From assembly GCA_965217115.1 (NCBI GenBank), contig OZ244239.1, positions 64,001 through 128,000 of the forward strand: a stretch of DNA of 64,000 bases, read 5' to 3'. Positions 1,646 through 54,505 of this stretch are shown piece after piece. A program made the position numbers and the translations under genes. Within the stretch, counting starts at the first letter, position 1, and every line of letters begins with the position of its first letter. A model generated the notes under the pieces. The model made no database searches, was not told the DNA's origin, and was given only the letters and a program-made list of their open reading frames with translations. This DNA comes from Bdellovibrionales bacterium (GTDB lineage Bacteria > Bdellovibrionota > Bdellovibrionia > Bdellovibrionales > CAYMLA01).

Positions 1646-1805
1646 GCCTTTTTTTCTAGAGTCTCTCCCAAAAGAGTCCAGTTCTTTTCGGCGAGTTTGG
1701 CTTGGCGACTTCCATTGCATTTCCCTGCAATGGAAGGTGACAAACGAATGTTTGAGCAAGAAAAGGGCTGGACTCTTTTGGGAGAGACCCTAGAAAAAAA
1801 ACGGC
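1646..1805. repeat. Long imperfect palindromic element, family 1, copy 1
   Basis: ~40-bp terminal inverted arms (TTTTTTCTAGAGTCTCTCCCAAAAGAGTCCAGTTCTTTTC / GAAAAGGGCTGGACTCTTTTGGGAGAGACCCTAGAAAAAA) and a central hairpin TTCCATTGCA-tttccc-TGCAATGGAA. Confidence 0.9.
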
Positions 1806-1876
1806 TCCACTATTGTTTGTCATATGTTTGTCATAAAGAATCCAGATAGTTCAAGAAAACTGTAAGAGCCTTCTCC

Positions 1877-2026
1877 CTAGAATCTCTCCCAAAAGAGTCC
1901 AGTTCTTTTCGGCGAGTTTGGCTTGGCGACTTCCATTGCATTTCCCTGCAATGGGAGGTGACAAACGGATGTTTGAGCAAGAAAAGGGCTGGATTCTTTT
2001 GGGAGAGACCCTAGAAAAAAAACGGC
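1877..2026. repeat. Long imperfect palindromic element, family 1, copy 2
   Basis: Near-identical direct copy of 1646-1805; also shares the downstream flank GGCTCCACTATTGTTTGTCATA. Confidence 0.9.
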
Positions 2027-2410
2027 TCATCAGAAAAAAACTGGCTCCACTATTGTTTGTCATATGTTGTTTGTCATATGTTTGTCATAAAGAATCTGAA
2101 AGAGGCGTTTTAATTATTCAAAGGAAAGACCGATAGGAGTGCATGAAGTTATTAGAATTTGGTGTTAAAGTGTTTTTCTTAGCCTTAGTCTTCGGTGTGA
2201 TTTTTCATTTTTAAGTGGTCTCTTTCAAGTGGTTTGCCAGATGAATTTAAGGCGGTGGTAGAGTAATATTTACATCTGACCCCGTTAAAATAACCTAGAG
2301 GTACGTCTTAAAATGAGACATAATTTAGTGTAGGCACTAGAATAATAGGAAAACACTGGAAATTCTCTTATAATGAACAATAGAAGTCATGGGTGGGGGG
2401 ATTTAGCTGT

Positions 2411-3274
2411 ATGAGAAGAATAGGTTTCGTTCTATTTATTTCTTTTTCATTATTGATGATTATGACTCAATTTAATAATTGTGACACTTATACAAATGCG
2501 GCGTTGTCTTATGGTGATCTATCATCTCTAGAGGATGATGAGTTTAATGACTCATACAGTATCGAATTAGAAATTTATAACTTCTCTCCTGTGGAGTTAA
2601 ATTCAGATTCCAATTTCGATATTTCAGGGGGTTGTTATGTAGGAGATTTTGATGGTAATCTTATAGAGTGGAAGCTTCTAGACCCTCAAGGAGCTGTTGT
2701 TAGTCAGAACCAATCAGGCGACGAAGCGCCCCATTGTATAGATGGTAGATTTATCCTGTCTATAGGAGTTCCAGAGAGTTTTGATCCTTCAGAACGGTAT
2801 AATTTAGAAGTGGAACTTGTCTCTCTCGACTCTTCGGGAAAGGAATATCGTAATCCGTCAATAGCTAGGAAATTAATAGAGGTAAAGGCGAGTGAGCTGT
2901 ACTTTAAACTAAATTTACAAGATTTAGGGGGGACTGCCTCTCAGCAGACAACCGTTGGAAGTGCAACCACCTTTAATGCATCGGGTACTTGCTATGAGGG
3001 AAACTCAGGAGGCCATCGCATAAGATGGGAAGTCGTAGGATTCTCTTCTGGAGGAATAGTATCGATGTCAATCAATGACGATGATACCACTGACAATGGA
3101 GTGTGTGTAAATGGAGAATTCACATCGGTCATCACATTACCCGCAGGTTTACCTACAGGGGTCTATACTTTACTTGTAGAACTAATATCGATCTCTTCTT
3201 CAGGGGTAGAGTTCAGAAACCCCTCAGATATGGCGGTAGACTCGGTCGCATTAAATGTGATTTTATCACCTTAG
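2411..3274 (+). CDS. Lipoprotein-like secreted protein with two tandem Cys-containing beta-sandwich-like repeats
   Basis: Signal ends in FNNC. Internal repeat SGxCY...I.W......C.xG.F......P......Y.L.VEL.S..SSG.E.RNPS occurs twice. ORF track start is 2393; ATG 2411 is more likely. Confidence 0.7.
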   Translation: MRRIGFVLFISFSLLMIMTQFNNCDTYTNAALSYGDLSSLEDDEFNDSYSIELEIYNFSPVELNSDSNFDISGGCYVGDFDGNLIEWKLLDPQGAVVSQNQSGDEAPHCIDGRFILSIGVPESFDPSERYNLEVELVSLDSSGKEYRNPSIARKLIEVKASELYFKLNLQDLGGTASQQTTVGSATTFNASGTCYEGNSGGHRIRWEVVGFSSGGIVSMSINDDDTTDNGVCVNGEFTSVITLPAGLPTGVYTLLVELISISSSGVEFRNPSDMAVDSVALNVILSP

Positions 3275-3379
3275 CTCCATCTCTCCCATAAAATAAAACC
3301 GGCCTTAAAAAGGGTTCTTTGTGATAAATAGTGGAACTGTTCCCAAGAGACCCATTGACTCAATTGATTGAATACGTCC

Positions 3380-3536
3380 TTTTTTTCTAGAGTCTCTTCC
3401 AAAAGAATCCAGTTCTTTTCGGCGAGTTTGGCTTGGCGACTTCCATTGCATTTCTCTGCAATGGGAGGTGACAAACGGATGTTTGAGCAAGAAAAGGGCT
3501 AGAGTCTTTTGGAAGAGACTCTAGAAAAAAAACGGC
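3380..3536. repeat. Long imperfect palindromic element, family 1, copy 3
   Basis: Same element. Shares the ~50-bp upstream flank (3311-3358) with copy 1 (1589-1637) and has a compensatory arm change. Confidence 0.9.
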
Positions 3537-3580
3537 TCATCAGAAAAAACTTGCTCCACCAATATTTATCACAAAGAACC

Positions 3581-4579
3581 TTAAAAAGACTCATCAAAGC
3601 TGACTTCCCCTGTGACTCCTACTTGATAAGCAGAAACCCGTCTCTCAAAGAAGTTGGCTAATTCTTGCATATCTTGTAATTCCATAAATGGGAAAGGGTT
3701 CTTTACATTGTACTGAGGCTTAATATTGAGTGTTGCCAGCCGTTGATCGGCTACAAACTGCAAGTACTGGAGCATATCTTTAGGACAGAGTCCAGCAACA
3801 CCTTCAGAGAGAAGATCTTCAGCAAAAGTCATTTCACAGTCGATAGCTTCATTTATCATGGAGACAATCATATCCTCCAATTGTTCATTAAATAATTCCG
3901 GCTCTTCGGCACGGGCAGTTCTGATGGCTTCAAAGGCGAATTCCATATGCATACTCTCATCACGGAAAACCCAATTGGTTCCAGAGGCTAGACCGTTTAG
4001 GAGTCCTTTAGAACGCAAAAAATACACATAGGCAAAAGCTCCAAAGAAGAAGATACCCTCGATACAACAGGCAAAACAAATAAGATTGAGTAAAAAACGG
4101 CGACGATCCTCTATAGTTTTCAAGGAGTCTAGTTCATTGATTGAATCGATCCACTTAAGAGCAAAATCCCCTTTCTTTTTAATAGAGGGAATCTTTTCAA
4201 TAGCAGCAAAAGCTTCAATTCGTTCGTTTTGATCAGGCATATAGGTGTCTAATAGAGTGAGGTAAAATTGCACATGGAGTGCTTCTTCGTAGAGTTGACG
4301 GGAGAGATATAAACGAGCCTCAGGCGCATTTAAATGTTTATAAAGATTCAAAACCAAATTGTTAGAAACAATGGAGTCTCCAGTTGCAAAGAAGGCAACT
4401 AAGCGTTTGATAAGGTGGCTTTCCGCCGGTTTAATTTTGCTATGCAAATCTTTGGTGTCATTACTGAAATCAACTTCTTCGACAGTCCAAGTGTTCTTGA
4501 TAGCATCTTTGTACATTTCGTAGAATTCAGGATATTTCATTGGTCGTAAAGTGAGATTAAAACCAGGATCAAGTAACAT
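3581..4579 (-). CDS. nrdB: Ribonucleotide reductase class Ia beta subunit
   Basis: FFATGD, EEALHVQFY (radical Tyr), IEGIFF, RDESMH and NFFERRV motifs. Confidence 0.95.
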   Translation of the reverse strand: MLLDPGFNLTLRPMKYPEFYEMYKDAIKNTWTVEEVDFSNDTKDLHSKIKPAESHLIKRLVAFFATGDSIVSNNLVLNLYKHLNAPEARLYLSRQLYEEALHVQFYLTLLDTYMPDQNERIEAFAAIEKIPSIKKKGDFALKWIDSINELDSLKTIEDRRRFLLNLICFACCIEGIFFFGAFAYVYFLRSKGLLNGLASGTNWVFRDESMHMEFAFEAIRTARAEEPELFNEQLEDMIVSMINEAIDCEMTFAEDLLSEGVAGLCPKDMLQYLQFVADQRLATLNIKPQYNVKNPFPFMELQDMQELANFFERRVSAYQVGVTGEVSFDESF

Positions 4580-4628
4580 AAGAGCCCCCCTTGGCTAAAG
4601 TTAATTTTCTAGACAAACAATTTTCTAT

Positions 4629-7088
4629 CTACTGACAAGTCTCACAAGTCTCTGGATTCTCCAGAGAACAGGCAAGAGCTTCTGCTTCAGTGTATGTCTT
4701 CTTAGCATCTGTTGTTGCAGTGCCATTGTTTTCAATGACGGTGGTTTTACGAATACGAGTCGCAGGGCGACTGCGTAAATAGTAGGTTGTTTTTATTCCT
4801 TTCTTCCAAGCGTACATATACATGGAAGAGAGTTTGCCAATATCGGGACTTTCCATAAATAGATTAAGCGACTGGCTTTGATCAATATAGGCACCACGAT
4901 CAGCGGCCATGTTGATAAGCTCCTTCATAGGCAGTTCCCAAACTGTACGATAGATGCGCCGAATATCTTCAGGAATGGCTTGAATATTAGCAATGGACCC
5001 CTCGGCCAATTTGATTTGATTACGAATGTCATCAGTCCATAGCCCGTGCTCTTTGAGATCATTGACAAGATACTTATTAATTTGAACAAACTCTCCAGAG
5101 AGAGTTTCTCGCTTAAACAGATTTGAAATTTGGGGTTCGATCGCTTCATAGCTGCCCATGACAGAAGCAATGGTTGCCGTCGGAGCAATAGCAATCACTA
5201 GAGAGTTCCTAACACCGTGTTCTTTTATATCTTCTCTTAGAGTCTTCCAACGTTGAAGATTTTGCTTAGAACTTGATGGTTCTATGCCCCATAAATCAAA
5301 TTGCAAATGACCTTGGGCTAAACGAGTGTCTGCAAAATTACTGTGTGCTCCATGTTGTTGAGCTAACTTGCAAGAGGAATTAAGGGCATTGTAGTAAATC
5401 TCCTCAGCGATTCTCTTGGAGAGCATCTGCGCCTCTTCTGAATCAAAGGGTAGAGCAAGTTTAAAGAAGGTGTCTTGTAAACCTAAATATCCCAGTCCTA
5501 CGGGCCGCCATTTGTGATTTGAGTCGGCTGCGGTCTGAATAGGGTAGAAGTTAATATCAACGACACGATCTAGATACTTCATGGCAATGCTCACTGTACG
5601 AGCTAATTTTTCAAAATTAAATTGTCCATTCTCCACATGGCGAGATAAATTGACAGAGCCTAAATTACAAACAGCTGTCTCTTTGTCATTTGTAACTTCG
5701 AGAATCTCGGTGCAAAGATTAGATAGATGGATGACGTTTTCAGGTTTAACCGTTTGATTGGATTTTTTATTAGAATGATCCTTAAAGTTTATCCAGCCAT
5801 TTCCAGTTTGGGCTAGAGTCTTCATCATTCTTCCATAGAGATCGCGGGCGGGAATTTGTTTAACATAGAGTTCTTGTTTCTCTGCTTCTAAATATGCAGT
5901 TTCAAATTCTTTACCAAAAAGGTCAGGAAAATGTGGAACGACTTTTGGATCAAATAAAGACCACATATCTCCAGATTCGACACGCGTCATAAAGAGATCA
6001 GAGATCCAATTGGCAATATTTAAATTATGGGCACGAGCTGCTTCGTCTCCAGTGTTGTCACGCAGTTCAAGAAACTCTTCAATATCAGCATGCCAGGATT
6101 CGATGTAGACACAACAAGCTCCCTTTCTCTTTCCCCCTTGATTAACTGCTGCTACTGATGAGTCTAAGGTTTTCAGCCAAGGGACAACCCCATTGGAGTG
6201 TCCGTTGGTTCCTTTGATCAGCGACCCTCTGGCACGAACACGGGAAAAGGAGACTCCAATACCACCAGCAAATTTTGATAACATAGCAATGTCTGTGTAC
6301 TTACCATAGATAGAGCCCAGGTCATCCTGAGGAGAGTCTAAGAGATAACAAGAAGACATCTGAGGGCGCAAGGTGCCTGAATTAAAAAGAGTGGGAGTGC
6401 TTGGCATGTAATCATGTCCCGAGATTAAACGATAAAATTCAATGGCATCTTCGGCATTCTCCGAGAGTCCACAGGCGACACGCATAAAGAAATATTGAGG
6501 ATTTTCGATAACCGTTCGACTCTTAGGGTCTTTAAGAAGGTAACGATCAAAAATCGTTTTGAGACCAAAGTATTCAAAGAGATCAGATCTGTAACTTTCA
6601 ACCGAAGCAGAGAGAAGTTCTTTATTTTCTTCGACAAATTGATAGGTGCTGTCACTGATCAGTCCAGCACGGTAGCCATAACGTATGGAATCCACAAATG
6701 AGTTAAGTCCTATATTACGAACTTCTTCGTCGATGTATATATTAAGGAGGCGTGAAGCTAGGCGAGAGTATTCAGGCTCTTCACTTATGAGTAGGGAGGC
6801 GGTTGATATGGCCAACTCATCAAGCTCTTTTGTTGTCGCTCCATCGTATAAGCCACTGATAGCTTTCGTGGCGACACGTAGAGGGTCCACTTCAGTTAAG
6901 GTCTGACAACAACTTGAAACCCTCTCGATGATCTTCATAACATCGACGGGAGCCAGAGAACCATTGCGTTTTTTGACTCTCATTTTATGGGGGCTAGAAT
7001 TTGGTGATAGAGATGCTGCTACAGCCGAATTAGATTCGTTTAAAGTTGGATTGCCGTGGGCTTCTTCTATAGGGTTGTTGTGTAACAT
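4629..7088 (-). CDS. nrdA: Ribonucleotide reductase class Ia alpha subunit with ATP cone
   Basis: VKKRNG ATP cone, STPTLFNSG, SSCYL, SNLCTEI, APTATI, KTTYY and a C-terminal CETCQ. Confidence 0.95.
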   Translation of the reverse strand: MLHNNPIEEAHGNPTLNESNSAVAASLSPNSSPHKMRVKKRNGSLAPVDVMKIIERVSSCCQTLTEVDPLRVATKAISGLYDGATTKELDELAISTASLLISEEPEYSRLASRLLNIYIDEEVRNIGLNSFVDSIRYGYRAGLISDSTYQFVEENKELLSASVESYRSDLFEYFGLKTIFDRYLLKDPKSRTVIENPQYFFMRVACGLSENAEDAIEFYRLISGHDYMPSTPTLFNSGTLRPQMSSCYLLDSPQDDLGSIYGKYTDIAMLSKFAGGIGVSFSRVRARGSLIKGTNGHSNGVVPWLKTLDSSVAAVNQGGKRKGACCVYIESWHADIEEFLELRDNTGDEAARAHNLNIANWISDLFMTRVESGDMWSLFDPKVVPHFPDLFGKEFETAYLEAEKQELYVKQIPARDLYGRMMKTLAQTGNGWINFKDHSNKKSNQTVKPENVIHLSNLCTEILEVTNDKETAVCNLGSVNLSRHVENGQFNFEKLARTVSIAMKYLDRVVDINFYPIQTAADSNHKWRPVGLGYLGLQDTFFKLALPFDSEEAQMLSKRIAEEIYYNALNSSCKLAQQHGAHSNFADTRLAQGHLQFDLWGIEPSSSKQNLQRWKTLREDIKEHGVRNSLVIAIAPTATIASVMGSYEAIEPQISNLFKRETLSGEFVQINKYLVNDLKEHGLWTDDIRNQIKLAEGSIANIQAIPEDIRRIYRTVWELPMKELINMAADRGAYIDQSQSLNLFMESPDIGKLSSMYMYAWKKGIKTTYYLRSRPATRIRKTTVIENNGTATTDAKKTYTEAEALACSLENPETCETCQ

Positions 7089-7115
7089 TGTTGAGTCCTC
7101 CTCTTGCAGTTTTTT

Positions 7116-7160
7116 AAAAAAAATTCGTCTCTTGCCAATAATTAAGATGACAAAGAGACG
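7116..7160 (-). terminator. Intrinsic terminator-like hairpin inside the nrdA 5' leader
   Basis: Minus strand CGTCTCTTTGTCA...TGGCAAGAGACG followed by AA-T8, about 15 nt before the GAGGAGG RBS. Confidence 0.55.
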
Positions 7161-7361
7161 CCCGTCACATTTTCCTCAAAAGTGACTTAGAATAATTTTT
7201 TTTAGATGAACCCATCCATGGTTTATTTTGAGCTAGCGCCCCAGAAATAAGACTTTGAGATCAAACTTCAGTGGACCTAATCAGTTGCTGTAGCTGGGCA
7301 TAAGCCCAGTTACTTCAGGTGTTTTTAGAAGCCCTGTCAGAACCTGACAATGACCTCTAAC

Positions 7362-7418
7362 CCATACAACTAGTGTTTTTTATCTTTAATTCTCTTCCTG
7401 AGAACTACATCTAGTGGT
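7362..7418 (-). promoter_or_regulatory. Tandem NrdR-like boxes
   Basis: Minus strand ACCACTAGATGTAGT (7404-7418) and ACACTAGTTGTATG (~7363-7376), 41 bp apart; both resemble acaCwAtATaTwGtg and lie upstream of nrdA. Confidence 0.65.
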
Positions 7419-7421
7419 GAC

Positions 7422-7451
7422 AGAATAGAGTGATAGCTGTGAGTGAGTCAA
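7422..7451 (-). promoter_or_regulatory. Candidate sigma70 promoter of nrdAB
   Basis: TTGACT-N18-TATTCT, immediately upstream of the NrdR-like box at 7404-7418. Confidence 0.45.
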
Positions 7452-7734
7452 AAAGAAATTATAAATAGGTACAGAGCGTAGGAATCGATATCTTAAAAGG
7501 ATAGTAATATCATGCTATTACGTTAAATATAAAAAATATAAGAAATAAAGCTTGAAATAAGGAACACTGTCATATTCAAAGGCAATAAATTTTGATGATA
7601 GTTCGAGCTCTTTTTAAAAAACAGATTTTCTTTTAAGAAAATAACAGTTTGATACTTTTCATAAAAATAAATGAATAAAAATCCATGTATCTTAACAAAA
7701 GTGGCAAGACAAGGTGGTTAAATTATTGTCATCG

Positions 7735-8517
7735 TCAAGCTGCTCTCAAATTCAAATGGGAAGAGTCATGGGTTTTTTTCATCACGTATTCAATGATGCT
7801 GGCTAAGTGTGCTTGATCTATTTGTATGAATCGAAGATTGCAATGGGATTGGTTGCTGTTCTTGTCGCACTTCTCTAGATGAACAACCTCTACCATGGCT
7901 CGAATAGGGGAGGGGATATCAGGACTGCCATTATAGGTAAGCTGATATACCTGCCTGATATTAATAATCCCATTGGGGACAAGGAGTCCCATGCCACCTT
8001 CACTAATTGTCTTTGCTTGTGCCGTATAGGTTATGTTTTGATTTAGGTCTGAGAGAGAGAGTTGGCCAAAAATATTTGCTCTGGAATATCGACGTCTAGG
8101 GATACCTAGGTCATCGGTGATCTTGTGAAAAGAGTGGACTCCTCTCCACTCTTTCATGCCTTCAGTCCAAAGTATGGTTTCAGAAAAATCTTCAATAGTT
8201 TTTAAATAACCCATCATTTGTGATTGATTTAGGGGGGTGCTTTGTTCTGCGTTGGGATGGCTAACGACATACCAGATTTTTTCTTGCTCCTCTTTTTCTT
8301 CTTGGGCCTGTCTCTCTGAAAGCCGTCGCCACTGTTCAGAGCTGAGCCACTGGGTCTGCCCCCTTGCCCATAAATGAACTTCTCTCCTATGGTTCTTCTG
8401 TGAGAGATAGTTTCTTGTTTGTGCCATTGAAAAAGGGCCAACTATTTCGTCATTAGTATTAATAAACCAATCTCTTCCATCCATGGTGACCTCTTCGACA
8501 TGATTTTGAATAAACAT
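7735..8517 (-). CDS. GYF_2 (DUF4339) x2 + PilZ domain protein
   Basis: W...GPFS...LWARGQTQW and WY...LWTEGMKEW repeats; RRYSR and TISEGG PilZ-type motifs. Confidence 0.8.
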   Translation of the reverse strand: MFIQNHVEEVTMDGRDWFINTNDEIVGPFSMAQTRNYLSQKNHRREVHLWARGQTQWLSSEQWRRLSERQAQEEKEEQEKIWYVVSHPNAEQSTPLNQSQMMGYLKTIEDFSETILWTEGMKEWRGVHSFHKITDDLGIPRRRYSRANIFGQLSLSDLNQNITYTAQAKTISEGGMGLLVPNGIINIRQVYQLTYNGSPDIPSPIRAMVEVVHLEKCDKNSNQSHCNLRFIQIDQAHLASIIEYVMKKTHDSSHLNLRAA

Positions 8518-8749
8518 AAAGAATTAAAGGAAATAGTAGAGAACTAGCAGATGACTTCAAGCATCGAATTGCCTAGCTGGGCCGAATTCGCCTTCGTCCT
8601 TCTTCAGAGGGGTAATGACAAAGGACTAGCCAAAAGGCTGAGTTAAATGATAGAATTTGAAAAGAATGCCCTAAAAGAAAACACACTGAATTCTTACTAA
8701 AATGTTAGCATTCTTTAATACAGGTTATGATAAATCACTGGAGTCTAAA

Positions 8750-9322
8750 ATGAAAAAACACGTTATAGCTGGGACGAACCGCCCTGGTTCTCGAAGTCTA
8801 GAACTCTCTTCTCTTATTCAAAGTCTCTACCTAGAACAGGGAGAGGATGTTGATGTTATCAGTTTGGAGAAGGTCGGTCTTGAGGAGATGAATGGAAGTC
8901 ATTACGGCAGTGATAGCATGCCTTCCAAAATTCGGGACTATGTGAATAGGATTTCAGAGTCTGATGGGCTTATTATGGTGGTTCCTGAGTACAATGGCTC
9001 CATGCCTGGAGCTTTAAAATACTTTATTGATTTTTGGAAATATCCGGGGTCCTTTGAATACCGTCCTGTGTGTTTTGTAGGTTTAGGTGGTCTTTTTGGT
9101 GGTCTGAGGCCAGTGGAACACTTGCAACATGTTTTTAATTACCGGAATTCCTTTGTTTATCCTGAAAGGGTCTTTATTAGAAATGTTTGGGAAGTATTGA
9201 GAGAGGGAAAGGTAGAGGATGAAATTATTCTGCAATTATTGAAATCGCAAGTTTCGGGGTTTCAGAAGTTTTGTGCAGCATTGAACGATTCTAACCTGCA
9301 TGTAAATAAGAGGGATTCATAG
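8750..9322 (+). CDS. NADPH-dependent FMN reductase
   Basis: GTNRPGS and PEYNGSMPGALKYFID motifs. ORF track start is 8702. Confidence 0.9.
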   Translation: MKKHVIAGTNRPGSRSLELSSLIQSLYLEQGEDVDVISLEKVGLEEMNGSHYGSDSMPSKIRDYVNRISESDGLIMVVPEYNGSMPGALKYFIDFWKYPGSFEYRPVCFVGLGGLFGGLRPVEHLQHVFNYRNSFVYPERVFIRNVWEVLREGKVEDEIILQLLKSQVSGFQKFCAALNDSNLHVNKRDS

Positions 9323-9324
9323 AA

Positions 9325-10290: not shown

Positions 10291-10308
10291 TTAAATTCTG
10301 ATCTTGAT

Positions 10309-11607: not shown

Positions 11608-11628
11608 AGAGTACCTCTCTCATTTAGT

Positions 11629-45418: not shown

Positions 45419-45427
45419 GGTCATTTT

Positions 45428-45973: not shown

Positions 45974-47250
45974 GTTCTGAATTTGTGCTGATCTCTGCCT
46001 TTGGGCGTGGAAATTGGTTGGCCGTGGAATTAGTTGAGCAGGGTCACAAAGTCTCATTGGTTGATGTCACGGAAAAGATGGGTCATTGGTCCCCTGAAGA
46101 CTGGGAGGGGCCATTCGGTGTTCTCACTTCTAAGCGATTAAGCTTTTTACAAAAAGAGAGGCTTGTTAGTGATGAGATAATAATTCAACAGCCAGGAGGG
46201 ATAACTTTCTGGTTGAAAGATCGTCCTCTGGAATTAATGGGGCCCATCACAAAATATCAGTTAGATAAACAGAGAGTGAGCTTAAACTCCCATGATTATA
46301 TTTCCAGTTATGATTCTTTAAATCAGAAGCAACGGGAGAATAGACAGAAGGAATTAGAGGAAGATGATTTTTCCCATAGTTGGATGGCCTATTTCGCTCA
46401 TCAATGGAGTGCGGCGAGTATGGGAGAGTTTAATTTAGGTTTTATCTCAGAGAAACCATTGCCTCTTTTTTCAAAATTTAATATACGCCAAGCAACTAGA
46501 GGAGGCATGCAACAGTCTCTTGATTGGTGTGAGTCTAAAGGTGTGAAAGTTCATCGTCATGCCAGTATTGAAGATATTGTCAGTGAAAGAAAAACAGTGG
46601 AAGGGTTTGAGATATCTGGTGAGAAGAGTGGGTTTCTTAAGGGAGATGAATTTATCTGGTGTTTATCCAGTGAAGAAGCTATGCGTTTTAAAGAGAGAAT
46701 TTGGAAGCCATTATTTCCCCAGGGTCATGTAAAGCCAGAATGGGTTTGGATGCGTTATCGAATTAGATTTATTCAAGGGGAGGAACACCTAGTGCTGCCG
46801 AACCACACCGTGATGATTAATAATCTTTTTCTACCATGGACCCATGAAAACCTGTGTGTCCTGCAAAAAACAGTGTTGGATAATGAAATAGATATCTGGC
46901 TACGTGTGCCTAACACTCAAAGAGCCAATAGTTTTTATATTAAACAACTCGGACAGAAAATATTGCTTCAGTTTCGGCAACGAATGCAAGATGCTGATGT
47001 TGAAATATCTGATTATCCCCATGAGATAAAATACAACTATGATGAGTTAGGGCCTAGCCGTTTTCCTGTCTATGACTTGAAGAGTTTGTTGGCACTGAAG
47101 AGAGTTCGTTTTATGAACCTTCATTACGATGGCCCTGAGTGTTGGGAACGCTTGGATTGGGAGGGAATGTTTGAATATCAGGAATTAATATTGAATGACA
47201 TTAAAGAGAATTATCAGTCTGAAGAGATGAATGAGGAGCTATTGACGTGA
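45964..47250 (+). CDS. Hypothetical protein with a degenerate FAD-Rossmann N-terminus
   Basis: 428-aa ORF, LISAFGRGNWLAVELVEQGHKVSLVD; overlaps purN and purB. Confidence 0.65.
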   Translation: MSMSSEFVLISAFGRGNWLAVELVEQGHKVSLVDVTEKMGHWSPEDWEGPFGVLTSKRLSFLQKERLVSDEIIIQQPGGITFWLKDRPLELMGPITKYQLDKQRVSLNSHDYISSYDSLNQKQRENRQKELEEDDFSHSWMAYFAHQWSAASMGEFNLGFISEKPLPLFSKFNIRQATRGGMQQSLDWCESKGVKVHRHASIEDIVSERKTVEGFEISGEKSGFLKGDEFIWCLSSEEAMRFKERIWKPLFPQGHVKPEWVWMRYRIRFIQGEEHLVLPNHTVMINNLFLPWTHENLCVLQKTVLDNEIDIWLRVPNTQRANSFYIKQLGQKILLQFRQRMQDADVEISDYPHEIKYNYDELGPSRFPVYDLKSLLALKRVRFMNLHYDGPECWERLDWEGMFEYQELILNDIKENYQSEEMNEELLT

Positions 47251-48539
47251 TTGAACGATACACTCGACCTGTTATGGGAGAAATTTGGCAATTAGAAAAT
47301 CGCTTTATGAAAATGTTAGAGGTTGAGAAAGCCGTAGCTACTGTTCAGGCTGAAATGGGAATGATACCGAAGGTAGCGGCAAGTGCTATTAATAAAAAAA
47401 GCTGTTTTGATGTTAAGAGGATTTTACAAATAGAGAAAACAACCCGTCATGATGTGATTGCCTTTGTTAGTTGTGTCGCAGAGAGCGTGGGAAAACATGG
47501 GCGCTATATTCATTATGGTATGACCAGTTCGGATATTTTGGACTCAGCATTAAGTTTACAGATCAGGGATGCCTTTAAGGAGCTAGAAAAGGGTTTTGCC
47601 CGTTTAGATGAAGCCTTAAGAAAACAGATTAAGAATCATGGAGAGACTCTTTGTGTTGGCCGTACTCACGGGATACATGCTGAACCGACCACCTTTGGTT
47701 TGAAACTCTGCGGCTTCCTTGAAGAGCTGAAGAGAAATTTTAAGCGGGTAAAATTGGCAACAGAGCAAATGCAAATTGTAAAATTGAGTGGAGCTGTAGG
47801 AACGTACTCCTCTCAGCCAGATACAGTTGAAAAAGGTGTTGGAAAAAAACTGGGATTAAATCCCGAGATGGTTGCCACTCAGGTGATCCCCAGGGATCGT
47901 CATGCAGAGTTAATGAATAGTTTGGCTGTTTTGGGTGCAGGGCTTGAGAGATTGGCTGTTGAACTTCGTCATTTACAGAGGACAGAAGTCAATGAGGCGA
48001 TTGAGGGTTTTCGTCCAGGGCAAAAAGGCTCTAGTGCGATGCCTCATAAGAAAAACCCAATTAGCTCAGAGAATATCACAGGGGTGGCGCGTTTGCTGAG
48101 AGGCTATGCTATAACAGCACTAGAGAATGTGGCACTTTGGCATGAGAGAGACATCAGCCATTCTTCAGCCGAGAGAGTGATTTTTCCAGATGGGTTTATT
48201 TTGGCAGACTACGCTCTTCACCGCATGGCTGAAGTGATGGAGAACTTGCAGGTCAATAAAGAGAGAATGTTAGAAAATATGAACTTATCTCAGGGACAGG
48301 TTTTTAGCTCCCATGTTTTGTTGTCTTTAGTTGAGAAAGGACTGTCCCGTGAAGATGCCTATGCCCATGTGCAGAGAGTGAGTCATAGCCTTGGAGTCGG
48401 AGAGCATTTAAAAACAAAACTTTTACAAGACAAAGCCATAGGGAAAATTTTATCGAAAAAAGACTTAGAGATTATTTTTTCTGGTAAGAGACATACTCAA
48501 GCTATTAGTAAGATTATACGGCGAGCTTTAAAAAAATAG
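47247..48539 (+). CDS. purB: Adenylosuccinate lyase
   Basis: GRTHGIHAEP and GSSAMPHKKNP motifs. Confidence 0.96.
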   Translation: MIERYTRPVMGEIWQLENRFMKMLEVEKAVATVQAEMGMIPKVAASAINKKSCFDVKRILQIEKTTRHDVIAFVSCVAESVGKHGRYIHYGMTSSDILDSALSLQIRDAFKELEKGFARLDEALRKQIKNHGETLCVGRTHGIHAEPTTFGLKLCGFLEELKRNFKRVKLATEQMQIVKLSGAVGTYSSQPDTVEKGVGKKLGLNPEMVATQVIPRDRHAELMNSLAVLGAGLERLAVELRHLQRTEVNEAIEGFRPGQKGSSAMPHKKNPISSENITGVARLLRGYAITALENVALWHERDISHSSAERVIFPDGFILADYALHRMAEVMENLQVNKERMLENMNLSQGQVFSSHVLLSLVEKGLSREDAYAHVQRVSHSLGVGEHLKTKLLQDKAIGKILSKKDLEIIFSGKRHTQAISKIIRRALKK

Positions 48540-48548
48540 GAGATATCA

Positions 48549-49316
48549 TTGATGACTTGGGAAAAAGATAAACTCTTATATGATGGCAAGGCCAAGAAAG
48601 TTTACACCGTCAAAGGTTATGACGACTTGGTATTAATGGAGTACAAAGACAACCTAACGGCTTTTAATGGAGAGAAGAAATCTAGTCTTGAGGATAAAGG
48701 GCAGGTGAATCGTAAGATTGCCTCTTTTATCTTTAAATACTTGAGGAAGAAAAAAATTGAAAGTCATTACGTGGGTGACATCGCTGAAACTAGCATGGTG
48801 GCCAAGAAGGTTGGAATCATACCTTTAGAGGTTGTGGTGAGAAACTATCTAGCAGGTTCGACGGCAAAGAAATTTGCCTTAGACGAAGGGACTGTCATTG
48901 AAAAACCTTTGGTGGAGTTCTTCTATAAGAGAGATGATCTAAATGATCCGTTTATTAGTGATGATCAAGCATTGATGTTAGAGATTGCTACTCAGAGTGA
49001 ATTGGATGATTTAAAAGTAAGAGCCTTAGCGGTAAATACTGTCCTAAGAGAGTTATTTGATCGGGCGGGAATAGAGTTGATTGATTTTAAATTAGAATTT
49101 GGCAGATTATCGTCGGGGGATTTAATTTTGGCAGATGAGATATCTCCCGATAGTTGTCGTCTATGGAATAAAGAAACTGGTGAAAAGATGGACAAGGATC
49201 GTTTTCGCCATGGTTTGGGTGATGTGATTGAAAACTATAAGGAAGTGTATAGACGAATTTTAGAGGTGGGAGGCATTGAAAATGCCGAAATTCAATCAGA
49301 GGAGGCATTTAGGTGA
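48549..49316 (+). CDS. purC: SAICAR synthetase
   Basis: GKAKK, DFKLEFG and ADEISPDSCR motifs. Confidence 0.96.
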   Translation: MMTWEKDKLLYDGKAKKVYTVKGYDDLVLMEYKDNLTAFNGEKKSSLEDKGQVNRKIASFIFKYLRKKKIESHYVGDIAETSMVAKKVGIIPLEVVVRNYLAGSTAKKFALDEGTVIEKPLVEFFYKRDDLNDPFISDDQALMLEIATQSELDDLKVRALAVNTVLRELFDRAGIELIDFKLEFGRLSSGDLILADEISPDSCRLWNKETGEKMDKDRFRHGLGDVIENYKEVYRRILEVGGIENAEIQSEEAFR

Positions 49317-49555
49317 AAGTGGGTGTAAAGATTATGCCAAGAAAAGAAGTATTGGACTCTCAAGGTAGAGCGGTGGAGGACACTTTAAAAAACCATGGTC
49401 ATCAGTTGCACAGTTGTCGTGTGGGCAAGTTTATTGAGTTAGATTTAGGTGATTGTAGTGAAGAAGATGCCCTAGATAAGGCTGGGGAAATTGCTAAGTT
49501 TGTTCTACACAATGAGTTGATTGAGAATTACGAGCTTTTAATTTTAGGAAATTAG
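49313..49555 (+). CDS. purS: FGAM synthase subunit PurS
   Basis: VLDSQGRAV, RVGK and NELIENY motifs. Confidence 0.92.
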   Translation: MKVGVKIMPRKEVLDSQGRAVEDTLKNHGHQLHSCRVGKFIELDLGDCSEEDALDKAGEIAKFVLHNELIENYELLILGN

Positions 49556-49610
49556 TTTGGAAGTTTTTTGATTGATTTGAGTTATTATTTAGCCCGTGTG
49601 AGGAGAGTTT

Positions 49611-50333
49611 GTGAAAAAGATAGGTGTGGTTCGGTTCCCTGGAACTAACTGTGATAGAGATATTTGGCAAGCCATAGAGGAGGCGGGTAACACACCTTCT
49701 TGGATGTGGCATAAGGACTGCTATGATTGGCAGGAGTTTGATTCAATTATCATTCCAGGTGGATTTAGTTATGGAGATTATTTATATGCAGGGGCGTTGG
49801 CAGCAAAGAGTTTTGTGATGAAAACGGTGATTGAAGCAGCGGGGAAGGGCGTTCCTATTTTGGGTATCTGTAATGGTTTTCAGATACTATGTAATTGTGG
49901 ATTGCTACCAGGGGTGTTGGTTCGCAATAAGAGTGTGCGTTTTATTGACGAGTGGGTCGAGTTAGAAATGAAGACCTCTTGTGCTGAATGGACCTGTGGT
50001 TATGACACTGGGGAGACATTGCGTCTTCCCATTGCCCATGGAGAGGGTTGCTATTATTTAGAAGAGAAGAAGCTTCAGAGCTTATACAGTAATGATCAAG
50101 TGTGGCTAAAATACAAGAATAACCCTAATGGTTCTGTAGATGATATTGCAGGGGTCTTAAATAAAGAGGGAAATGTGGCGGGTCTAATGCCCCACCCAGA
50201 GAGAGCGATGTTTCCATGGATGGGTGGAGAAGATGGTGTCTCATTTTTTAATAGGGACTTATTAAAAAACAACGATGGTCTCAAGCAGAAACCGTTAGAG
50301 AATAATAATAGTATTAGTAGAGGTTCGAGATGA
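49611..50333 (+). CDS. purQ: FGAM synthase glutaminase subunit
   Basis: FPGTNC, GGFSYGDY, GICNGFQ and MPHPER motifs. Confidence 0.95.
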   Translation: MKKIGVVRFPGTNCDRDIWQAIEEAGNTPSWMWHKDCYDWQEFDSIIIPGGFSYGDYLYAGALAAKSFVMKTVIEAAGKGVPILGICNGFQILCNCGLLPGVLVRNKSVRFIDEWVELEMKTSCAEWTCGYDTGETLRLPIAHGEGCYYLEEKKLQSLYSNDQVWLKYKNNPNGSVDDIAGVLNKEGNVAGLMPHPERAMFPWMGGEDGVSFFNRDLLKNNDGLKQKPLENNNSISRGSR

Positions 50334-52537
50334 CTCTGGACGGAAAAACATTGGATGGAAAACTAGCCCATTATCGTCTTTCAAGGGAAGAGTTGGAGCT
50401 TATTAAAGCTCAATTAGGTCGTGAGCCTGAAGGAGTGGAGTGGGCTATTTATTCGGCTATGTGGAGTGAACATTGTAGTTATAAGAGTTCACGGGTTCAT
50501 TTAGGAAAATTTTATAATCAATCAGAGAGAGTTCTTCAGTCCTTTGGTGAAAATGCAGGAGTTATTGATCTTGGTGAAGGTGAGAAGGTGGCCTTTAAAA
50601 TGGAGAGCCATAATCACCCCAGTTATATATCTCCCCATCAAGGTGCGGCGACGGGTGTGGGTGGAATACTACGGGATATATTTACTATGGGAGCTAGACC
50701 TGTGGCTTTAGCCAATTATCTCTGCTTTGGAGAGCCATCGGCCGAGAGAATGCCTGTCATCGTCGATGGTGTGGTGCGAGGTATTGGTGATTACGGTAAT
50801 TGTGTAGGGGTTCCAAATATCACGGGACAAACTGAGTTCGATAACTCCTACAATGGGAATGTTTTAGTCAACGCTCTAGCGGTGGGGCTCTATCGTCCAG
50901 GGGAGGAAGTTTATCTTTCAAAGGCTCGGGGGAGTGGGAATTGGGTTGTTTATGTCGGGGCTAAAACTGGGCGAGATGGTGTTCATGGGGCGAGCATGGC
51001 CAGTGAGTCCTTTGATAATGCATCGTTATCAAATAAAACAACTATACAGATTGGTGACCCTTTCTATGAAAAATTGTTAATTGAGTCCTGCTTGGAAGTG
51101 ATGAAGGAAGATCTTGTTGTGGCTATTCAAGATATGGGTGCAGCGGGATTGACCAGTTCTAGTTTTGAAATGGCGGCCAGTGGTGGAGTAGGATTAAAAC
51201 TTTATTTAGATCAGGTCCCACTGCGTGATTCTTCGGTGACCCCAGAGGAGATTTTACTCTCTGAGAGTCAGGAGAGAATGTTACTTGTTTGTGAACCAGA
51301 TAAATTTGATCGAATCCAAAGTATCTTTCAACGTTGGGGTCTGGATGCGGTTAAAGTGGGAGAAGTTCAAGAAAAAAAAGAAGTGGAAATTTATTGGCAT
51401 AAAGAAAAAATATGTGGCATTGACCCTGAGATGATTGTTGAAAAGGCTCCCCGCTATGAGCGTCCCTATGATATTTGGAAATCAACCAATAGAGTAAAGA
51501 GAGTTGAAGATATACCAGGTTTTTCTAAGAGAATTGATAGAGAATCAATTGAGAGATCAGTGGGCTCTCTACACGGGATGGGCCGAAGCTGGGTTTATAA
51601 TCAATATGATCAGCGCGTGGGTGCTAATACGGTGAGGGATTGTTCCCATTGCCTGGGAGTGATCCGCCTGCCTGATTCGAAACGAACGTTAGGACTTGTA
51701 TTGGGTTGTCGTCCCCATATTATGCGCTGGGATGCTAAAGAAGGTGGTCGAGACGCGGTTGCCTACCCAGCCTTGCAACTTGCAATTAAGGGGTTTGAAC
51801 CGTTGGCGGTGACGGATTGTTTGAACTTTGGCAATCCAGAAAAAACAGAGACGATGAGTGAGTTCGTGGCAGCGGTTGAGGGGATTAGCGAAATTTGTGA
51901 AAAATTAGATGCTCCTGTTATTAGTGGTAATGTGAGTTTTTATAATGAGACTTTGGGTAAAAACATTACATCAACTCCCTCGACGGGGCTTGTTGGTTTA
52001 GGTCCAAATGTGGATAGGGTTCTGCCTTTTGATTGTTTTCAAAGTGAGGGGGAGCTTGTTTATTTAATGAGTTCTGATCAGTTTGTGATAGGTGGTCGCA
52101 GGCAAGAAGAGGAGGAAGAGTGTATTACAGGAGTTGGTCAGATAAGGGCTGAGCTTGTAGAGAAGATGTGTAAGTTAAGTCAAACGATGGCTCTATCGGA
52201 TTGTGTAAGCGCTTCTAGAGTTGTGGGAAAGTATGGTTTGAGTTATGCACTGGTGCGCATGGCGAGCGAGGGCTTGGGTGTTCAATTAGAGCTCTCTTCT
52301 GAGCTAGAGAAGAAATGGCATTTAGAGAGTTATTATCAGATTCTGTGGTCTGTTAAGAGAGATAAAAGAGAGAATTTCGAGTCTTTATTTAGTAGAGACA
52401 GAGATGCTCCAATAACATTACAGTGCTTAGGTTCGGTTAGTGGAAAAAGTCTCATTGTAAATGGTGAGAATATATTAGACTTTAAAGAAGTTATAAATGA
52501 ATATAATTCCTCTTGGGAGAAAAATATTGGAAATTAA
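50330..52537 (+). CDS. purL: FGAM synthase synthetase subunit
   Basis: WSEHCSYK, ESHNHP and SESQERM motifs. Confidence 0.96.
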   Translation: MTLDGKTLDGKLAHYRLSREELELIKAQLGREPEGVEWAIYSAMWSEHCSYKSSRVHLGKFYNQSERVLQSFGENAGVIDLGEGEKVAFKMESHNHPSYISPHQGAATGVGGILRDIFTMGARPVALANYLCFGEPSAERMPVIVDGVVRGIGDYGNCVGVPNITGQTEFDNSYNGNVLVNALAVGLYRPGEEVYLSKARGSGNWVVYVGAKTGRDGVHGASMASESFDNASLSNKTTIQIGDPFYEKLLIESCLEVMKEDLVVAIQDMGAAGLTSSSFEMAASGGVGLKLYLDQVPLRDSSVTPEEILLSESQERMLLVCEPDKFDRIQSIFQRWGLDAVKVGEVQEKKEVEIYWHKEKICGIDPEMIVEKAPRYERPYDIWKSTNRVKRVEDIPGFSKRIDRESIERSVGSLHGMGRSWVYNQYDQRVGANTVRDCSHCLGVIRLPDSKRTLGLVLGCRPHIMRWDAKEGGRDAVAYPALQLAIKGFEPLAVTDCLNFGNPEKTETMSEFVAAVEGISEICEKLDAPVISGNVSFYNETLGKNITSTPSTGLVGLGPNVDRVLPFDCFQSEGELVYLMSSDQFVIGGRRQEEEEECITGVGQIRAELVEKMCKLSQTMALSDCVSASRVVGKYGLSYALVRMASEGLGVQLELSSELEKKWHLESYYQILWSVKRDKRENFESLFSRDRDAPITLQCLGSVSGKSLIVNGENILDFKEVINEYNSSWEKNIGN

Positions 52538-53927
52538 TAGAGCATGGCGTGAGGAGTGTGGGGTCTTCGGTGTTTGGAATCACGAGGAAGCCAGTCACCT
52601 GACTTATCTAGGGTTATATGCAATTCAACATCGGGGACAAGAGGCCACGGGTATTGTGTCCTTAAATGGAAAAGAACATCGGCATTTTAGAGGTCTTGGT
52701 TTAGTGGCCGATGTTTTTATGCCAGGTGTTTTAGAGAAACTTCCCGGTCGAGCAGCGATAGGTCATGTCCGTTACTCAACCTCTGGCGGGAATAAGTTAT
52801 CCAATGCGCAACCTTTAACGGCACAGTTGATCAGTGGCCCAGTGGCTTTAGCCCATAATGGTAATATTGTGAATAACCAAGAAATAAGAACATCTTTAAA
52901 GCGCAAGGGAGTCATTTTCCATGGAAGCAATGACACTGAGGCCTTGTTGCACATGCTTGCAAGAGATCCGAGCGATGGGATCATTGAGTCATTAAAAGAT
53001 AATTTAAAGAAGCTAGTCGGCGCTTTTAGTATGGTTGTTTTAACGGACGATAAACTAGTGGCTATCCGTGACAGGCATGGATTTCGTCCTCTATCTATTG
53101 GTAAAATAAAAAATAAAGAGGGCGTAGAGAGCTACGTTGTATCATCTGAAACCTGTTCTTTTGATTTGATTGGAGCGAAGCACTATCGAGATGTGAAAGC
53201 GGGTGAGATTTTCTGGGTGGATGAGAGCGGTGAACATTCAGTCATGTTTGGAGAAGAGAAAAAACGATTGGCTCAGTGTGTTTTTGAGCATGTGTATTTT
53301 TCCCGTCCTGATTCTCAAGTTTTTGGGAGGAGTGTCTATGAGACTCGTAAAAATTTTGGTCGAGAATTGGCGAAGGAATCCCCTGTAGAGGCGGATGTTG
53401 TTATTCCCGTTCCTGACAGTGGAGTGCCTGCGGCTATTGGCTACGCAAATGAGATAAATCTACCTTTTGAGTTGGGAATTATTCGTAATCACTATGTTGG
53501 GAGAACTTTTATTCAACCGCATCAGTCTATCCGTAGTTTTGGGGTTAAAGTGAAACTCAATCCACAGAGGGCAGTGTTAGAGGGGAAAAGAGTTATTGTT
53601 ATCGATGACTCTGTGATTAGAGGAACGACGAGTAAAAAAATTGTGGATTTAATTCGTCAAGCGGGGGCAAGAGAAGTACATCTGAGAATTGCAGCGCCTT
53701 CGACCAGAGGTTCTTGTTATTATGGGGTGGATACACCAAGTCAAGAGGAGTTAATAGCTTCTAAGATGAATTTAGAGGAGATTTGTAATTTTATCGGAGC
53801 TGATTCTATGAATTACCTATCTATGGAAGCTCTGTGGAAATCGATGGATGGAGATAAAACACAGTTTTGCGCAGCTTGCTTTGACCGCGATTATCCGACA
53901 GAGCTATTTAAAGTGGACCCGTCTTAG
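52497..53927 (+). CDS. purF: Amidophosphoribosyltransferase
   Basis: EECGVFG, QHRGQE, HNGN and DDSVIRGTT motifs. Confidence 0.96.
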   Translation: MNIIPLGRKILEINRAWREECGVFGVWNHEEASHLTYLGLYAIQHRGQEATGIVSLNGKEHRHFRGLGLVADVFMPGVLEKLPGRAAIGHVRYSTSGGNKLSNAQPLTAQLISGPVALAHNGNIVNNQEIRTSLKRKGVIFHGSNDTEALLHMLARDPSDGIIESLKDNLKKLVGAFSMVVLTDDKLVAIRDRHGFRPLSIGKIKNKEGVESYVVSSETCSFDLIGAKHYRDVKAGEIFWVDESGEHSVMFGEEKKRLAQCVFEHVYFSRPDSQVFGRSVYETRKNFGRELAKESPVEADVVIPVPDSGVPAAIGYANEINLPFELGIIRNHYVGRTFIQPHQSIRSFGVKVKLNPQRAVLEGKRVIVIDDSVIRGTTSKKIVDLIRQAGAREVHLRIAAPSTRGSCYYGVDTPSQEELIASKMNLEEICNFIGADSMNYLSMEALWKSMDGDKTQFCAACFDRDYPTELFKVDPS

Positions 53928-53956
53928 ACCTCGTAGATAGATGTTCAAAAGGGAGG

Positions 53957-54505
53957 TTTTTTAAATGGGTCTTTATTATTTAGCTCAGACATTCGTTTGG
54001 CTGCGGCGCTCGCTTTAGCGAGCATCGCACCAATCCGAACTCGCTAAAGAACAAAGACCTATTTAAAAAATAAACTTTGAAATTTGGGGTTGACTGGGGG
54101 CAGTGGGGTTGGAGGTAGGGAAAGTTCACCTTCAGAGGCTGTTTTTTTTAAATGGGTCTTTATTATTTAGCTCAGACATTCGTTTGGCTGCGGCGCTCGC
54201 TTCAGCGAGCATCGCACCAATCCGAACTCGCTAAAGAACAAAGACCCATTTAAAAAATAAACTTTGAAATTTGGGGTTGACTGGGAACAGTGGGGCTGGA
54301 GGTAGGGAAGGCTTGCTTTCAGAGGCTGTTTTTTTAAATGGGTCTTTATTATTTAGCTCAGACATTCGTTTGGCTGCGGCGCTCGCTTTAGCGAGCATCG
54401 CACCAATCCGAACTCGCTAAAGAACAAAGACCCATTTAAAAAATAAACTTTGAAATTTGGGGTTGACTGGGGACAGTGGGGTTGGAGGTAGGGAAAGTTC
54501 ACCTT
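53957..54505. repeat. Three tandem ~187-bp units, each a ~114-bp long hairpin (family 2) plus a G-rich spacer
   Basis: The AAATGGGTC arm starts at 53963, 54150 and 54336. Arms TTTTTTAAATGGGTCTTT / AAAGACCCATTTAAAAAA; apical GCTCGC-ttta-GCGAGC. Confidence 0.93.

Follow-up and report, generated by a model that had tools for sequence, protein, structure and literature searches.

What kind of element carries one short, two-part sequence inside unrelated stems at two sites about 52 kb apart? The question is raised by a window of 64,000 nucleotides (nt; G000:C1:64001-128000) from a Bdellovibrionales bacterium whose genome (G000) is a single contig of 2,170,531 bp with 39.6% G+C. An earlier note, made from the letters of this window, had described two families of long hairpins that share a bipartite core and had proposed that they form one structure-conserved class. 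In family 1 (plus strand), the first half (core A) is GCGAGTTTGGCTTGG at window positions 1691-1705 and the second half (core B) is CAAACGAATGTTTGAGC at 1741-1757; the reverse complement of family 2 reads GCGAGTTCGGATTGG at 54030-54044 and CAAACGAATGTCTGAGC at 53983-53999. The halves are identical between the families at 13/15 and 16/17 positions, as had been claimed, and the proposal of one class was borne out by the recurrence of the core, by 25 stem clusters, by covariation and by copies in other genera. On the basis of current results, families 1 and 2 are branches of one structure-conserved superfamily of interspersed repeats, imperfect palindromes of about 125-160 nt. This order-restricted superfamily of structured repeats is defined by an internal asymmetric loop and not by its ends, and is previously undescribed; no description of such repeats was found in the literature on Bdellovibrio and palindromic, REP/RAYT or miniature inverted-repeat transposable element (MITE)-type repeats.

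Core, fold and covariation of the hairpins

A pattern search for both core halves (at most 3 mismatches each, 15-90 nt apart, on the same strand) found the paired core 98 times in G000 and 0 times in 3 shuffled genomes. The insert between the halves was of the 35-nt family-1 apical type in 40 of these copies and of the 29-32-nt family-2 type in 55, the remaining 3 having an insert of 62-63 nt with an extra nested palindrome. Grouping by the outer 30 + 30 nt gave the 25 stem clusters. A covariance model (R1), built from 29 aligned representatives (alignment A1) and their RNAalifold structure, gave 141 rows in G000. A manual count put 35 of these down to weaker matches on the opposite strand of places already listed, and the remaining 106 places comprised 64 copies of family-2 type, 40 of family 1 and 2 partial ones. 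Nearly all of the 104 full copies lie outside predicted genes, and the hairpins (about 125-160 nt each) together occupy about 13 kb, with carrier units and arrays covering more. The earlier note had held that it would be wrong if the core were not found in further copies with diverse stems or if covariation were missing; the core recurs in about 100 further copies with diverse, covarying stems, and in other genera too. In three copies of a family-2 subtype at G000:C1:427492-430382, a nested 33-nt palindrome (AGAATACCGGTCGC..GCGACCGATATTCT) lies exactly in the apical loop, and apical insertions of 40-50 nt were also seen in two other genomes (L044 in G021 and L218 in G086); the apex tolerates cargo.

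Every copy folds as one long hairpin, in which the outer stems and apical hairpins differ in sequence between the families yet still pair, as the note had recognized. Fold z-scores on the two strands were -11.3 and -12.6 for family 1 and -8.5 and -9.4 for family 2 (0/200 shuffles equally stable). From its base, the hairpin begins with an outer helix (about 28 bp) that retains its pairing although its sequence varies freely. Next comes an asymmetric internal loop that does not change, with 5'-GAGUU in one arm and 5'-(N)(A/C)UGUYYGA in the opposite one, and the pairs that close it at either end covary. Towards the apex follow two short helices and an apical hairpin, which covary as well and tolerate large insertions. 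Compensatory changes were observed in 32 of the 47 predicted pairs of A1, and 27/28 outer-helix pairs were changed on both sides. Paired cells made up 96.0% in A1 compared with 80.5 ± 0.6% after shuffling (0/500 shuffles reached it), and the covariation score was 0.473 compared with 0.171 for shuffled alignments and at most 0.141 when the 3' partners were slid by 1-3 columns; as the copies are relatives, the shuffle control overstates significance, and the slide control and the number of pair types are safer guides. The two pairs touching the loop also covary (GC/GC, GT/AC, AT/AT and TC/GA). In other genomes the outer stems bear no relation to their counterparts in G000, the letters GAGTT (5' arm) and TGTYYGA (3' arm) have been retained, and the helices between loop and apex have been swapped pairwise across genera (TTGG/CCAA to CAAG/CTTG and TCG/CGA to TCC/GGA). 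Natural variants of the loop exist: G-C-AGTT replaces G-AGTT in four loci (L033, L216, L220 and L227), and A-AGTT occurs together with GA-AG in two (L221 and L223).

The strand that reads core A and then core B was the more stable one in 88/97 distinct copies, and minimum-energy folds had 480 G·U pairs on this strand versus 263 on the opposite one. In a model-fitted alignment of 49 non-redundant copies from 17 genomes, 171 G·T and 30 A·C cells were counted, G·T exceeding A·C in 16/17 genomes with one tie. Three near-fixed inner wobbles (G·T in 46/49, T·G in 31/49 and T·G in 20/49 copies) carry much of this excess; in the outer helix, G·T and A·C stood at 47:23. The polarity of the selected strand is set by the asymmetric loop, not by the wobbles. 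We conclude that one single strand of defined polarity (GCGAGTT...TGTYTGAGC), be it RNA or single-stranded DNA, is the selected form.

In the window, R1 matched family 1 on the plus strand at 1659-1790 (G000:C1:65659-65790, E 3e-17; the copy whose core is quoted above), 1880-2011 (G000:C1:65880-66011, E 3e-16) and 3390-3521 (G000:C1:67390-67521, E 1e-14). All three hairpins had been listed before, but as separate elements, whereas the first two share one composite unit (1592-2096). Family 2 was matched on the minus strand at 53951-54076, which is 24 nt past the purF stop codon, and at 54138-54263 and 54324-54449, which are members of a tandem unit of ~187 bp; the spacer of the unit (54069-54137, minus strand) is repeated at 54256-54323 and 54443-54505. 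The reported T-runs and A-runs at the element ends are present, but their order is T-run 5' and A-run 3' on both strands, which leaves no hairpin followed by a U-tail; the geometry is therefore not that of an intrinsic terminator, and this reading was rejected. A peptide-coding reading was also rejected, as a stop-free frame runs through the hairpin in only 20 and 21 of the 64 family-2 copies on the two strands. The comparison with Rfam that the note had suggested gave no family at gathering threshold: Rfam 15 had 0 matches in the window, and the only overlaps in seven representative loci were with two plant miRNA models (31 and 26 bits versus thresholds of 100 and 111).

Carrier units, genomic positions and candidate enzymes

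The family-1 hairpin sits centrally in a larger unit with left end GGTTCTTTGTGATAAATAGTGGAAC and right end ..TCCACTATTGTTTGTCATAAAGAAYC, its boundaries being defined by alignment of the 40 copies and by end motifs. The ends are imperfect inverted repeats of 21-25 bp, internal modules are optional, and unit lengths range from 208 to 518 bp. Two such composite MITE-like units, both on the plus strand, are present in the window. The unit at 1592-2096 holds two hairpins, has the inverted repeats GCTCTTTGTGATAAATAGTGGA (left, at the 5' end) and ..CCACTATTGTTTGTCAT..AAAGAATC (right, at the 3' end), and is flanked by the 9-nt direct repeat TGAAAGAGG at 1583-1591 and 2097-2105; the unit at 3313-3578 holds one hairpin, has the inverted repeats GGTTCTTTGTGATAAATAGTGGA / TCCACCAATATTTATCACAAAGAA, and is flanked by the 10-nt direct repeat CCTTAAAAAG at 3303-3312 and 3579-3588. 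Within the 16 nt beyond the two ends, 16/28 family-1 units had a direct repeat of 8 nt or longer, compared with 14/756 control pairs in which flanks came from different family-1 copies. The target duplications are 8-12 bp long. HUH/Y1 transposition makes no target duplications, and those of family 1 point to a DDE-type element, cut-and-paste or replicative, rather than to a Y1 enzyme. The features that characterize a MITE (small size, terminal inverted repeats, duplication of the target site and no transposase gene) were all found in family 1, the family whose unit boundaries could be drawn. An autonomous partner with the same ends was not found in G000, where the 41 family-1 end motifs lie beside hairpins or are solitary and none was seen with an enclosed transposase open reading frame (ORF), although none was examined specifically for one.

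The family-1 hairpins have a mean identity of 95% (range 86-100%). Measured against the consensus, core A has diverged by 0.002, core B by 0.027 (largely through a single R position), the apical insert by 0.026 and the outer arms by 0.053. Stem changes on one side only comprised 42 G·U, 38 A·C and 31 other mismatches, and 19 pairs were compensated. Recent stem decay looks neutral and the older divergence between lineages is compensated, which fits selection at propagation.

Family-2 copies occur in tandem arrays (period of 170-300 bp) and as same-orientation copies 1-3.5 kb apart in orphan-gene islands. On their core-A strand, the 5' side has a variable number of C-rich repeats of ~12 nt (CGYTGTYCCCY...), then CTGTTCCCAGTC, ~8 nt and GATTTCAAAG, and the 3' side of the hairpin has CTTTGCCMAAATCAA. 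In many copies the reverse complement of CTTTGCCMAAATCAA, TTGATTTKGGCAAAG, either provides the stop codon of a convergent gene or is found 0-24 nt away from that codon. The minus strand of the window spacer contains the C-rich flank motif ..CTGYCCCCAGTCAACCCCAAATTTCAAAG, which precedes most family-2 hairpins across G000. The ~12-nt pyrimidine-rich repeats form arrays of 2 to >10 units, for example at 1814.9-1815.1, 1665.0-1665.2 and 527.4-527.5 kb in G000 and, in the window, on the minus strand of 54069-54137; the opposite strand has runs of G4-5 spaced 7 nt apart, a G-quadruplex-type pattern. In two other genomes (G007 and G020), the hairpins are bracketed by a further inverted repeat of about 26 nt, and 10-nt direct repeats are visible by eye in 2/4 copies of G007. 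The asymmetric core may also be inverted relative to its flanks (flip/flop), as seen in three G000 copies at G000:C1:529099-533943 and in G007, where two copies (L041/L051) stand against two (L047/L056). Recombination, or copying mediated by the hairpin, within the long stem would be expected to give such isomers.

With respect to distribution, R1 matches were found in 7/40 relatives (E ≤ 0.001) and in 18/150 sampled genomes of the order Bdellovibrionales (E ≤ 1e-4), copy numbers in the latter being lower bounds (at most 23 candidates per genome were scored). In a phylum-wide sample, matches were present in 4/23 genomes inside the order and in 0/127 phylum members outside it. A 17-letter degenerate core pattern gave only chance matches among the matches listed for the species collection, and the exact bipartite pattern was used instead; over 185,579 species it had 17 matches, all of them in Bdellovibrionales, Bdellovibrionaceae or Pseudobdellovibrionaceae metagenome-assembled genomes. 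Copy number is patchy between genomes (0 to >100). Thus, a covariance-model search of the genome and of other Bdellovibrionota, which the note had proposed, did yield copies, but within the set of genomes searched these were confined to the order named Bdellovibrionales in NCBI titles.

The neighbours of 39 loci in other genomes were unrelated housekeeping genes, whose orthologues in G000 do not lie beside a copy, and a transposase domain was found in 0/90 flanking ORFs of other-genome loci (leaving out three G020 loci, L034, L042 and L059, that hold a Y1 gene). Since positions are not kept between genomes and family 1 lies inside a MITE with terminal inverted repeats and target duplications, the repeats are to be classed as mobile or amplifying DNA that is non-autonomous, and not as RNA genes that the host keeps at fixed loci. 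Local spread has occurred by tandem duplication. On the core-A strand, the 3'-side gene was convergent in 43/64 family-2, 26/40 family-1 and 28/41 other-genome copies and the 5'-side gene was co-directional in 52/64, 17/40 and 23/42, respectively, counts that include tandem copies and hence observations that are not independent. There is thus turnover of the elements, with a preference for gene ends and a weak rule of orientation. In the window, the better-folding strand of the first family-2 copy is antisense to purF (52497-53927, plus strand; domain match), which it follows. A hairpin downstream of purF in the same relative orientation was also found in G089 (L222, G089:C1:909812-912937), the two genomes belonging to different families of the order. 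The element was present at 0/29 purF loci of other relatives, and a conserved purF site was rejected; the shared position reflects either two separate insertions at the end of this gene or an ancient site that has been lost repeatedly.

We also looked for an enzyme. Genome-wide, G000 had no match to Y1_Tnp, DDE_Tnp_1, ISL3 or TnpB, only a truncated rve relic at 1.56 Mb, outside the window, and no multi-copy protein of insertion-sequence type was found in it. The only recurrent proteins near G000 copies were ORFs through the repeats themselves and a six-member family of ~175 aa without Pfam match. Members of this family lie at G000:C1:1560497-1567371, 428145-428678 and 753490-754023, and four of them surround a truncated IS3-type integrase relic (200 aa; rve and HTH_21). 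In other genomes, the only recurrent linked enzyme was a divergent Y1 (IS200-like) transposase of G020, in which seven 80%-identical paralogs of a 181-aa protein (locus L042:1756-2301) match Pfam Y1_Tnp (29.5 bits versus a cut-off of 23) and score below the NCBIfam cut-offs for IS200 and RAYT. An R1 hairpin lies within 300 nt of 5/7 paralogs, and in a genome of 2.4 Mb with six strong hairpin matches this linkage cannot be chance. Y1_Tnp as such is common in the order (29/40 relatives), with one match in G148 and two in G121; tblastn with the G020 protein found nothing in G000. It had been suggested that the hairpins are mobilised in trans by an HUH/RAYT-like or other enzyme. Positional turnover, the terminal inverted repeats and target duplications of family 1 and the Y1 gene adjoining the hairpin in G020 are in line with such mobilisation, but a RAYT partner is not general: a RAYT/Y1 gene flanked by the repeats was seen in G020 only and not in G000, G142 or G089. 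G000 keeps XerC-like and XerD-like genes and a third tyrosine recombinase. It also has a 315-aa retron-type reverse transcriptase (G000:C1:1868366-1869313; best NCBIfam match the retron St85 family, 130.6 bits, below the cut-off of 235), which is not near any hairpin copy.

Explanations for the conserved loop

In what we consider the best explanation, the conserved loop would be a cis-acting recognition module, active in the folded single strand reading GCGAGTT...TGTYTGAGC, and would be read by a trans-acting protein. Our best guess is single-stranded DNA with a structure-specific DNA enzyme, of HUH/Y1 type or another, as its reader, since the divergent Y1 transposase of one relative is the only gene found in physical linkage. 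As no such enzyme was found in G000, the copies there would be orphans in slow decay that move passively with their carriers (the MITE, or segmental duplication). Taken as a whole, from mobile superfamily to orphaned copies, this explanation has in our judgment about an even chance of being right. Several observations weigh against it. Y1_Tnp had no match in G000 (104 copies), G142 (at least 23 copies) or G089 (at least 14), and by tblastn the G020-type Y1 was found in only one of five copy-rich genomes, ~45 kb from the nearest hairpin. In G020 itself the hairpin may be upstream or downstream of the Y1 gene and point either way, and the hairpin could equally be an insertion target. The target duplications of family 1 and, by eye, of G007 copies suggest that at least these carriers were moved by another, probably DDE-type, enzyme that recognises the ends and not the core. 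Recent stem changes in family 1 (G·U 42 versus A·C 38) reveal no strand-specific selection at that time scale, and the wobble counts given above come from an alignment fitted to a model that itself favours G·U. No consistent replication-strand bias was found (25/34 clusters in family 1 and 12/28 in family 2, with 59% for genes; GC skew places the origin of G000 near 1.26 Mb and the terminus near 0.17 Mb). Finally, the family-1 core is far more conserved than the outer arms, which could mean function at each locus and not just movement.

The last point, a near-invariant core in a family that has diverged by 5%, is the main reason why a reading at the RNA level keeps some weight, although we consider it rather unlikely. 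It holds that the hairpin is a cis-acting site of RNA processing, stability or read-through blocking for a conserved host RNA-binding protein or RNase, and that small mobile elements carry it since a gene-adjacent insertion thereby becomes harmless or useful, the transposase seeing the MITE ends and not the core. Such cargo would agree with the presence of the same core within carriers of unrelated ends (family-1 terminal inverted repeats, family-2 flanks, and the outer inverted repeats of G007 and G020), with target duplications that make the movement of family 1 explicable without the core, and with conserved G·U pairs and a potential for tandem G·A pairs, which are typical of RNA motifs. 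The clustering of copies at gene ends, with a convergent 3'-side gene in family 2 (43/64) and in other genomes (28/41) and a co-directional 5'-side gene in 52/64 family-2 copies, may be read in the same way. However, the 5' neighbour is co-directional in only 23/42 other-genome and 17/40 family-1 copies, and transcripts of the abutting gene, whose stop codon is often 11-24 nt away, would carry the opposite strand, which folds less well. Moreover, no unit-associated sigma-70-like promoter was found (the family-2 region had 1 site compared with 1.6 expected, and it is outside the array), no U-tail follows the hairpin on either strand, Rfam gave no match, and an L7Ae-type protein occurred in 0/41 genomes. 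The promoter scans and the terminator geometry also stand against multi-copy small-RNA genes, in which each unit would be an independently transcribed structured RNA with a host function. Strong covariation and a conserved loop over order-level distance would suit such genes, and the tandem arrays resemble multi-copy small-RNA loci; but the units were not found in 132/150 genomes of the order, copy number varies from 1 to 104, positions are not conserved, and family 1 is embedded in an element with terminal inverted repeats and target duplications. We therefore regard small-RNA genes as highly improbable.

A recombination site also appears improbable. Under this proposal the hairpins would be folded sites resembling attC or dif, where short gene modules are inserted and excised by XerC/XerD or by the third integrase, building the orphan-gene islands. 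In attC sites, the inverse core RYYYAAC at the 5' end and the core GTTRRRY at the 3' end pair at the hairpin base, an integrase (IntI) is present, and the sites often overlap or supply stop codons. There is indeed a likeness: structure is conserved over sequence, one folded strand is active, and the sites abut or overlap stop codons and punctuate orphan-gene arrays. Family-2 copies punctuate islands at 1-3.5-kb spacing and in one orientation (474.9-483.0, 913.6-920.0 and 1814.8-1821.8 kb), the adjoining gene often has a stop codon that overlaps, or comes from, their flank TTGATTTKGGCAAAG, and G000 has the XerC-like and XerD-like genes and one further integrase. On the other hand, no integron integrase was found (best score of 120.7 bits versus a cut-off of 265), copies are spread chromosome-wide, and the conserved part lies inside the hairpin, enclosed by ~28 bp of stem. 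Words like R''/R' are either missing or, as internal 6/7 matches, arranged wrongly for an attC site, GTT... and ...AAC standing the other way round, and covariation supports a different pairing register. All copies keep complementary arms, whereas core recombination between different stems would mismatch them, and copies within an island share stems, some islands holding paralogous genes, which fits tandem duplication. A search with a dif motif found no site at 7 or fewer mismatches, and no convincing similarity was seen in the core.

Returning to recognition of the loop by a trans-acting factor, a more far-reaching version may be put forward tentatively, as a possibility only. The loop would be a portable module, read in a folded strand of one polarity by a factor common to Bdellovibrio-type bacteria, retained across divergence at the level of the order and passed among at least three unrelated vehicles, which might be the MITE with terminal inverted repeats and target duplications, the gene-end tandem units with C-rich 12-mer arrays and the Y1-transposase-adjacent units. 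If so, structure and not termini would be the unit of selection, which would make this a new kind of repeat among bacteria. Interspersed palindromes of bacteria (REP, REPIN, ERIC and Correia) are usually defined by conserved ends or by a conserved whole sequence; here only an internal lopsided loop is fixed, and ~45 surrounding base pairs have been rewritten by compensatory change. The same loop in carriers of unrelated ends provides a testable handle, with a loop of 5 + 9 nt, a defined strand and natural variants, that could be used to find new nucleic-acid-binding or -cutting activity in predatory bacteria. In addition, one repeat superfamily accounts jointly for the local repeats, cassette-like islands and gene-end duplications of G000. 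As the hairpins supply stop codons to genes and mark most of the variable islands, they should be masked or modelled in annotation and comparative work.

Comparison with known repeats and further observations

REP/REPIN elements with RAYT (Y1) transposases are characterized as hairpin-forming 'in ssDNA or mRNA' (Bertels & Rainey 2011, PMC3116915), and one account gives REPs a length of 20-40 bp and a conserved GTAG or CGTC tag at one end (PMC3733652). As far as these two accounts describe them, the likeness is considerable: extragenic copies in the tens to hundreds, a long hairpin built from two imperfectly inverted halves, clusters and tandems, non-autonomy, and a Y1 transposase gene adjoining the hairpins, here in one relative. 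The repeats reported here are, like REPINs, inverted units that form a hairpin in many extragenic copies. By the same accounts, however, the conserved REPs of REPINs form the ends, whereas here the conserved part is a loop in the middle of the hairpin and the stem base is free; there is no GTAG or CGTC tag, the invariant letters being GAGTT and TGTYYGA in mid-hairpin. Also unlike REPINs, three copy-rich genomes including G000 are without a Y1 gene, and some carriers have target duplications.

Palindromic bacterial MITEs include Correia/NEMIS in Neisseria, ERIC/IRU in enterobacteria and BOX/RUP in pneumococci. The present repeats resemble them as intergenic imperfect palindromes of 100-270 bp that are often at gene ends, modular or mosaic, and without a transposase of their own; terminal inverted repeats and target duplication are shared by family 1. 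They differ in that one structured core is common to carriers with unrelated termini and in different genera, stems covary rather than being conserved, and the target duplication is 8-12 bp, not TA. Subterminal hairpins of IS200/IS605 and of their derivatives without transposase (PATEs) are comparable as strand-specific folded signals in single-stranded DNA, with fixed letters beside a hairpin, and in view of the Y1 linkage in G020; but the hairpin here is several times longer and lies on either side and in either orientation of the Y1 gene, there is no TnpB, and family 1 has target duplications. Thus, the superfamily is akin to REP/REPIN and palindromic MITEs, but falls outside each named family by its defining tests.

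The core had also been likened to a kink-turn, in which a three-nucleotide bulge is followed by tandem sheared G·A pairs and which has an L7Ae-type or other partner. Opposed GA dinucleotides beside a Watson-Crick stem and a bulge on the expected strand are in fact present. This reading was not supported: the bulge is of 4-8 nt and not 3, the pair beside G·A is Watson-Crick, the closing or flanking pair is U·G, two loci (L221 and L223) have A for the G of the 5' GA, and none of the 41 genomes searched had an L7Ae-family protein.

The 24-nt motif of the outer inverted repeat in G007 had 15 matches (at most 3 mismatches), several of them solitary just past gene ends, and no transposase was found between the paired outer repeats. 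Solitary motifs (C51:8673, C9:23354, C65:45390, C4:24480 and C21:8454) lie ~2-140 nt past the nearest upstream ORF, 3/5 of them within 30 nt. This motif may be an element or signal in its own right. In the same genome, a bacterial RNase P RNA gene (L041:1723-2067; RF00010, 199 bits) starts ~100 nt downstream of a hairpin copy. In the window, the ORFs adjoining the hairpin clusters (2393-3274 and 54619-55119) had no Pfam match. A small, ordinary terminator-like hairpin with a T-rich tail (54543-54564, minus strand) lies 3' of the latter ORF (166 aa, minus strand), between it and the family-2 array.

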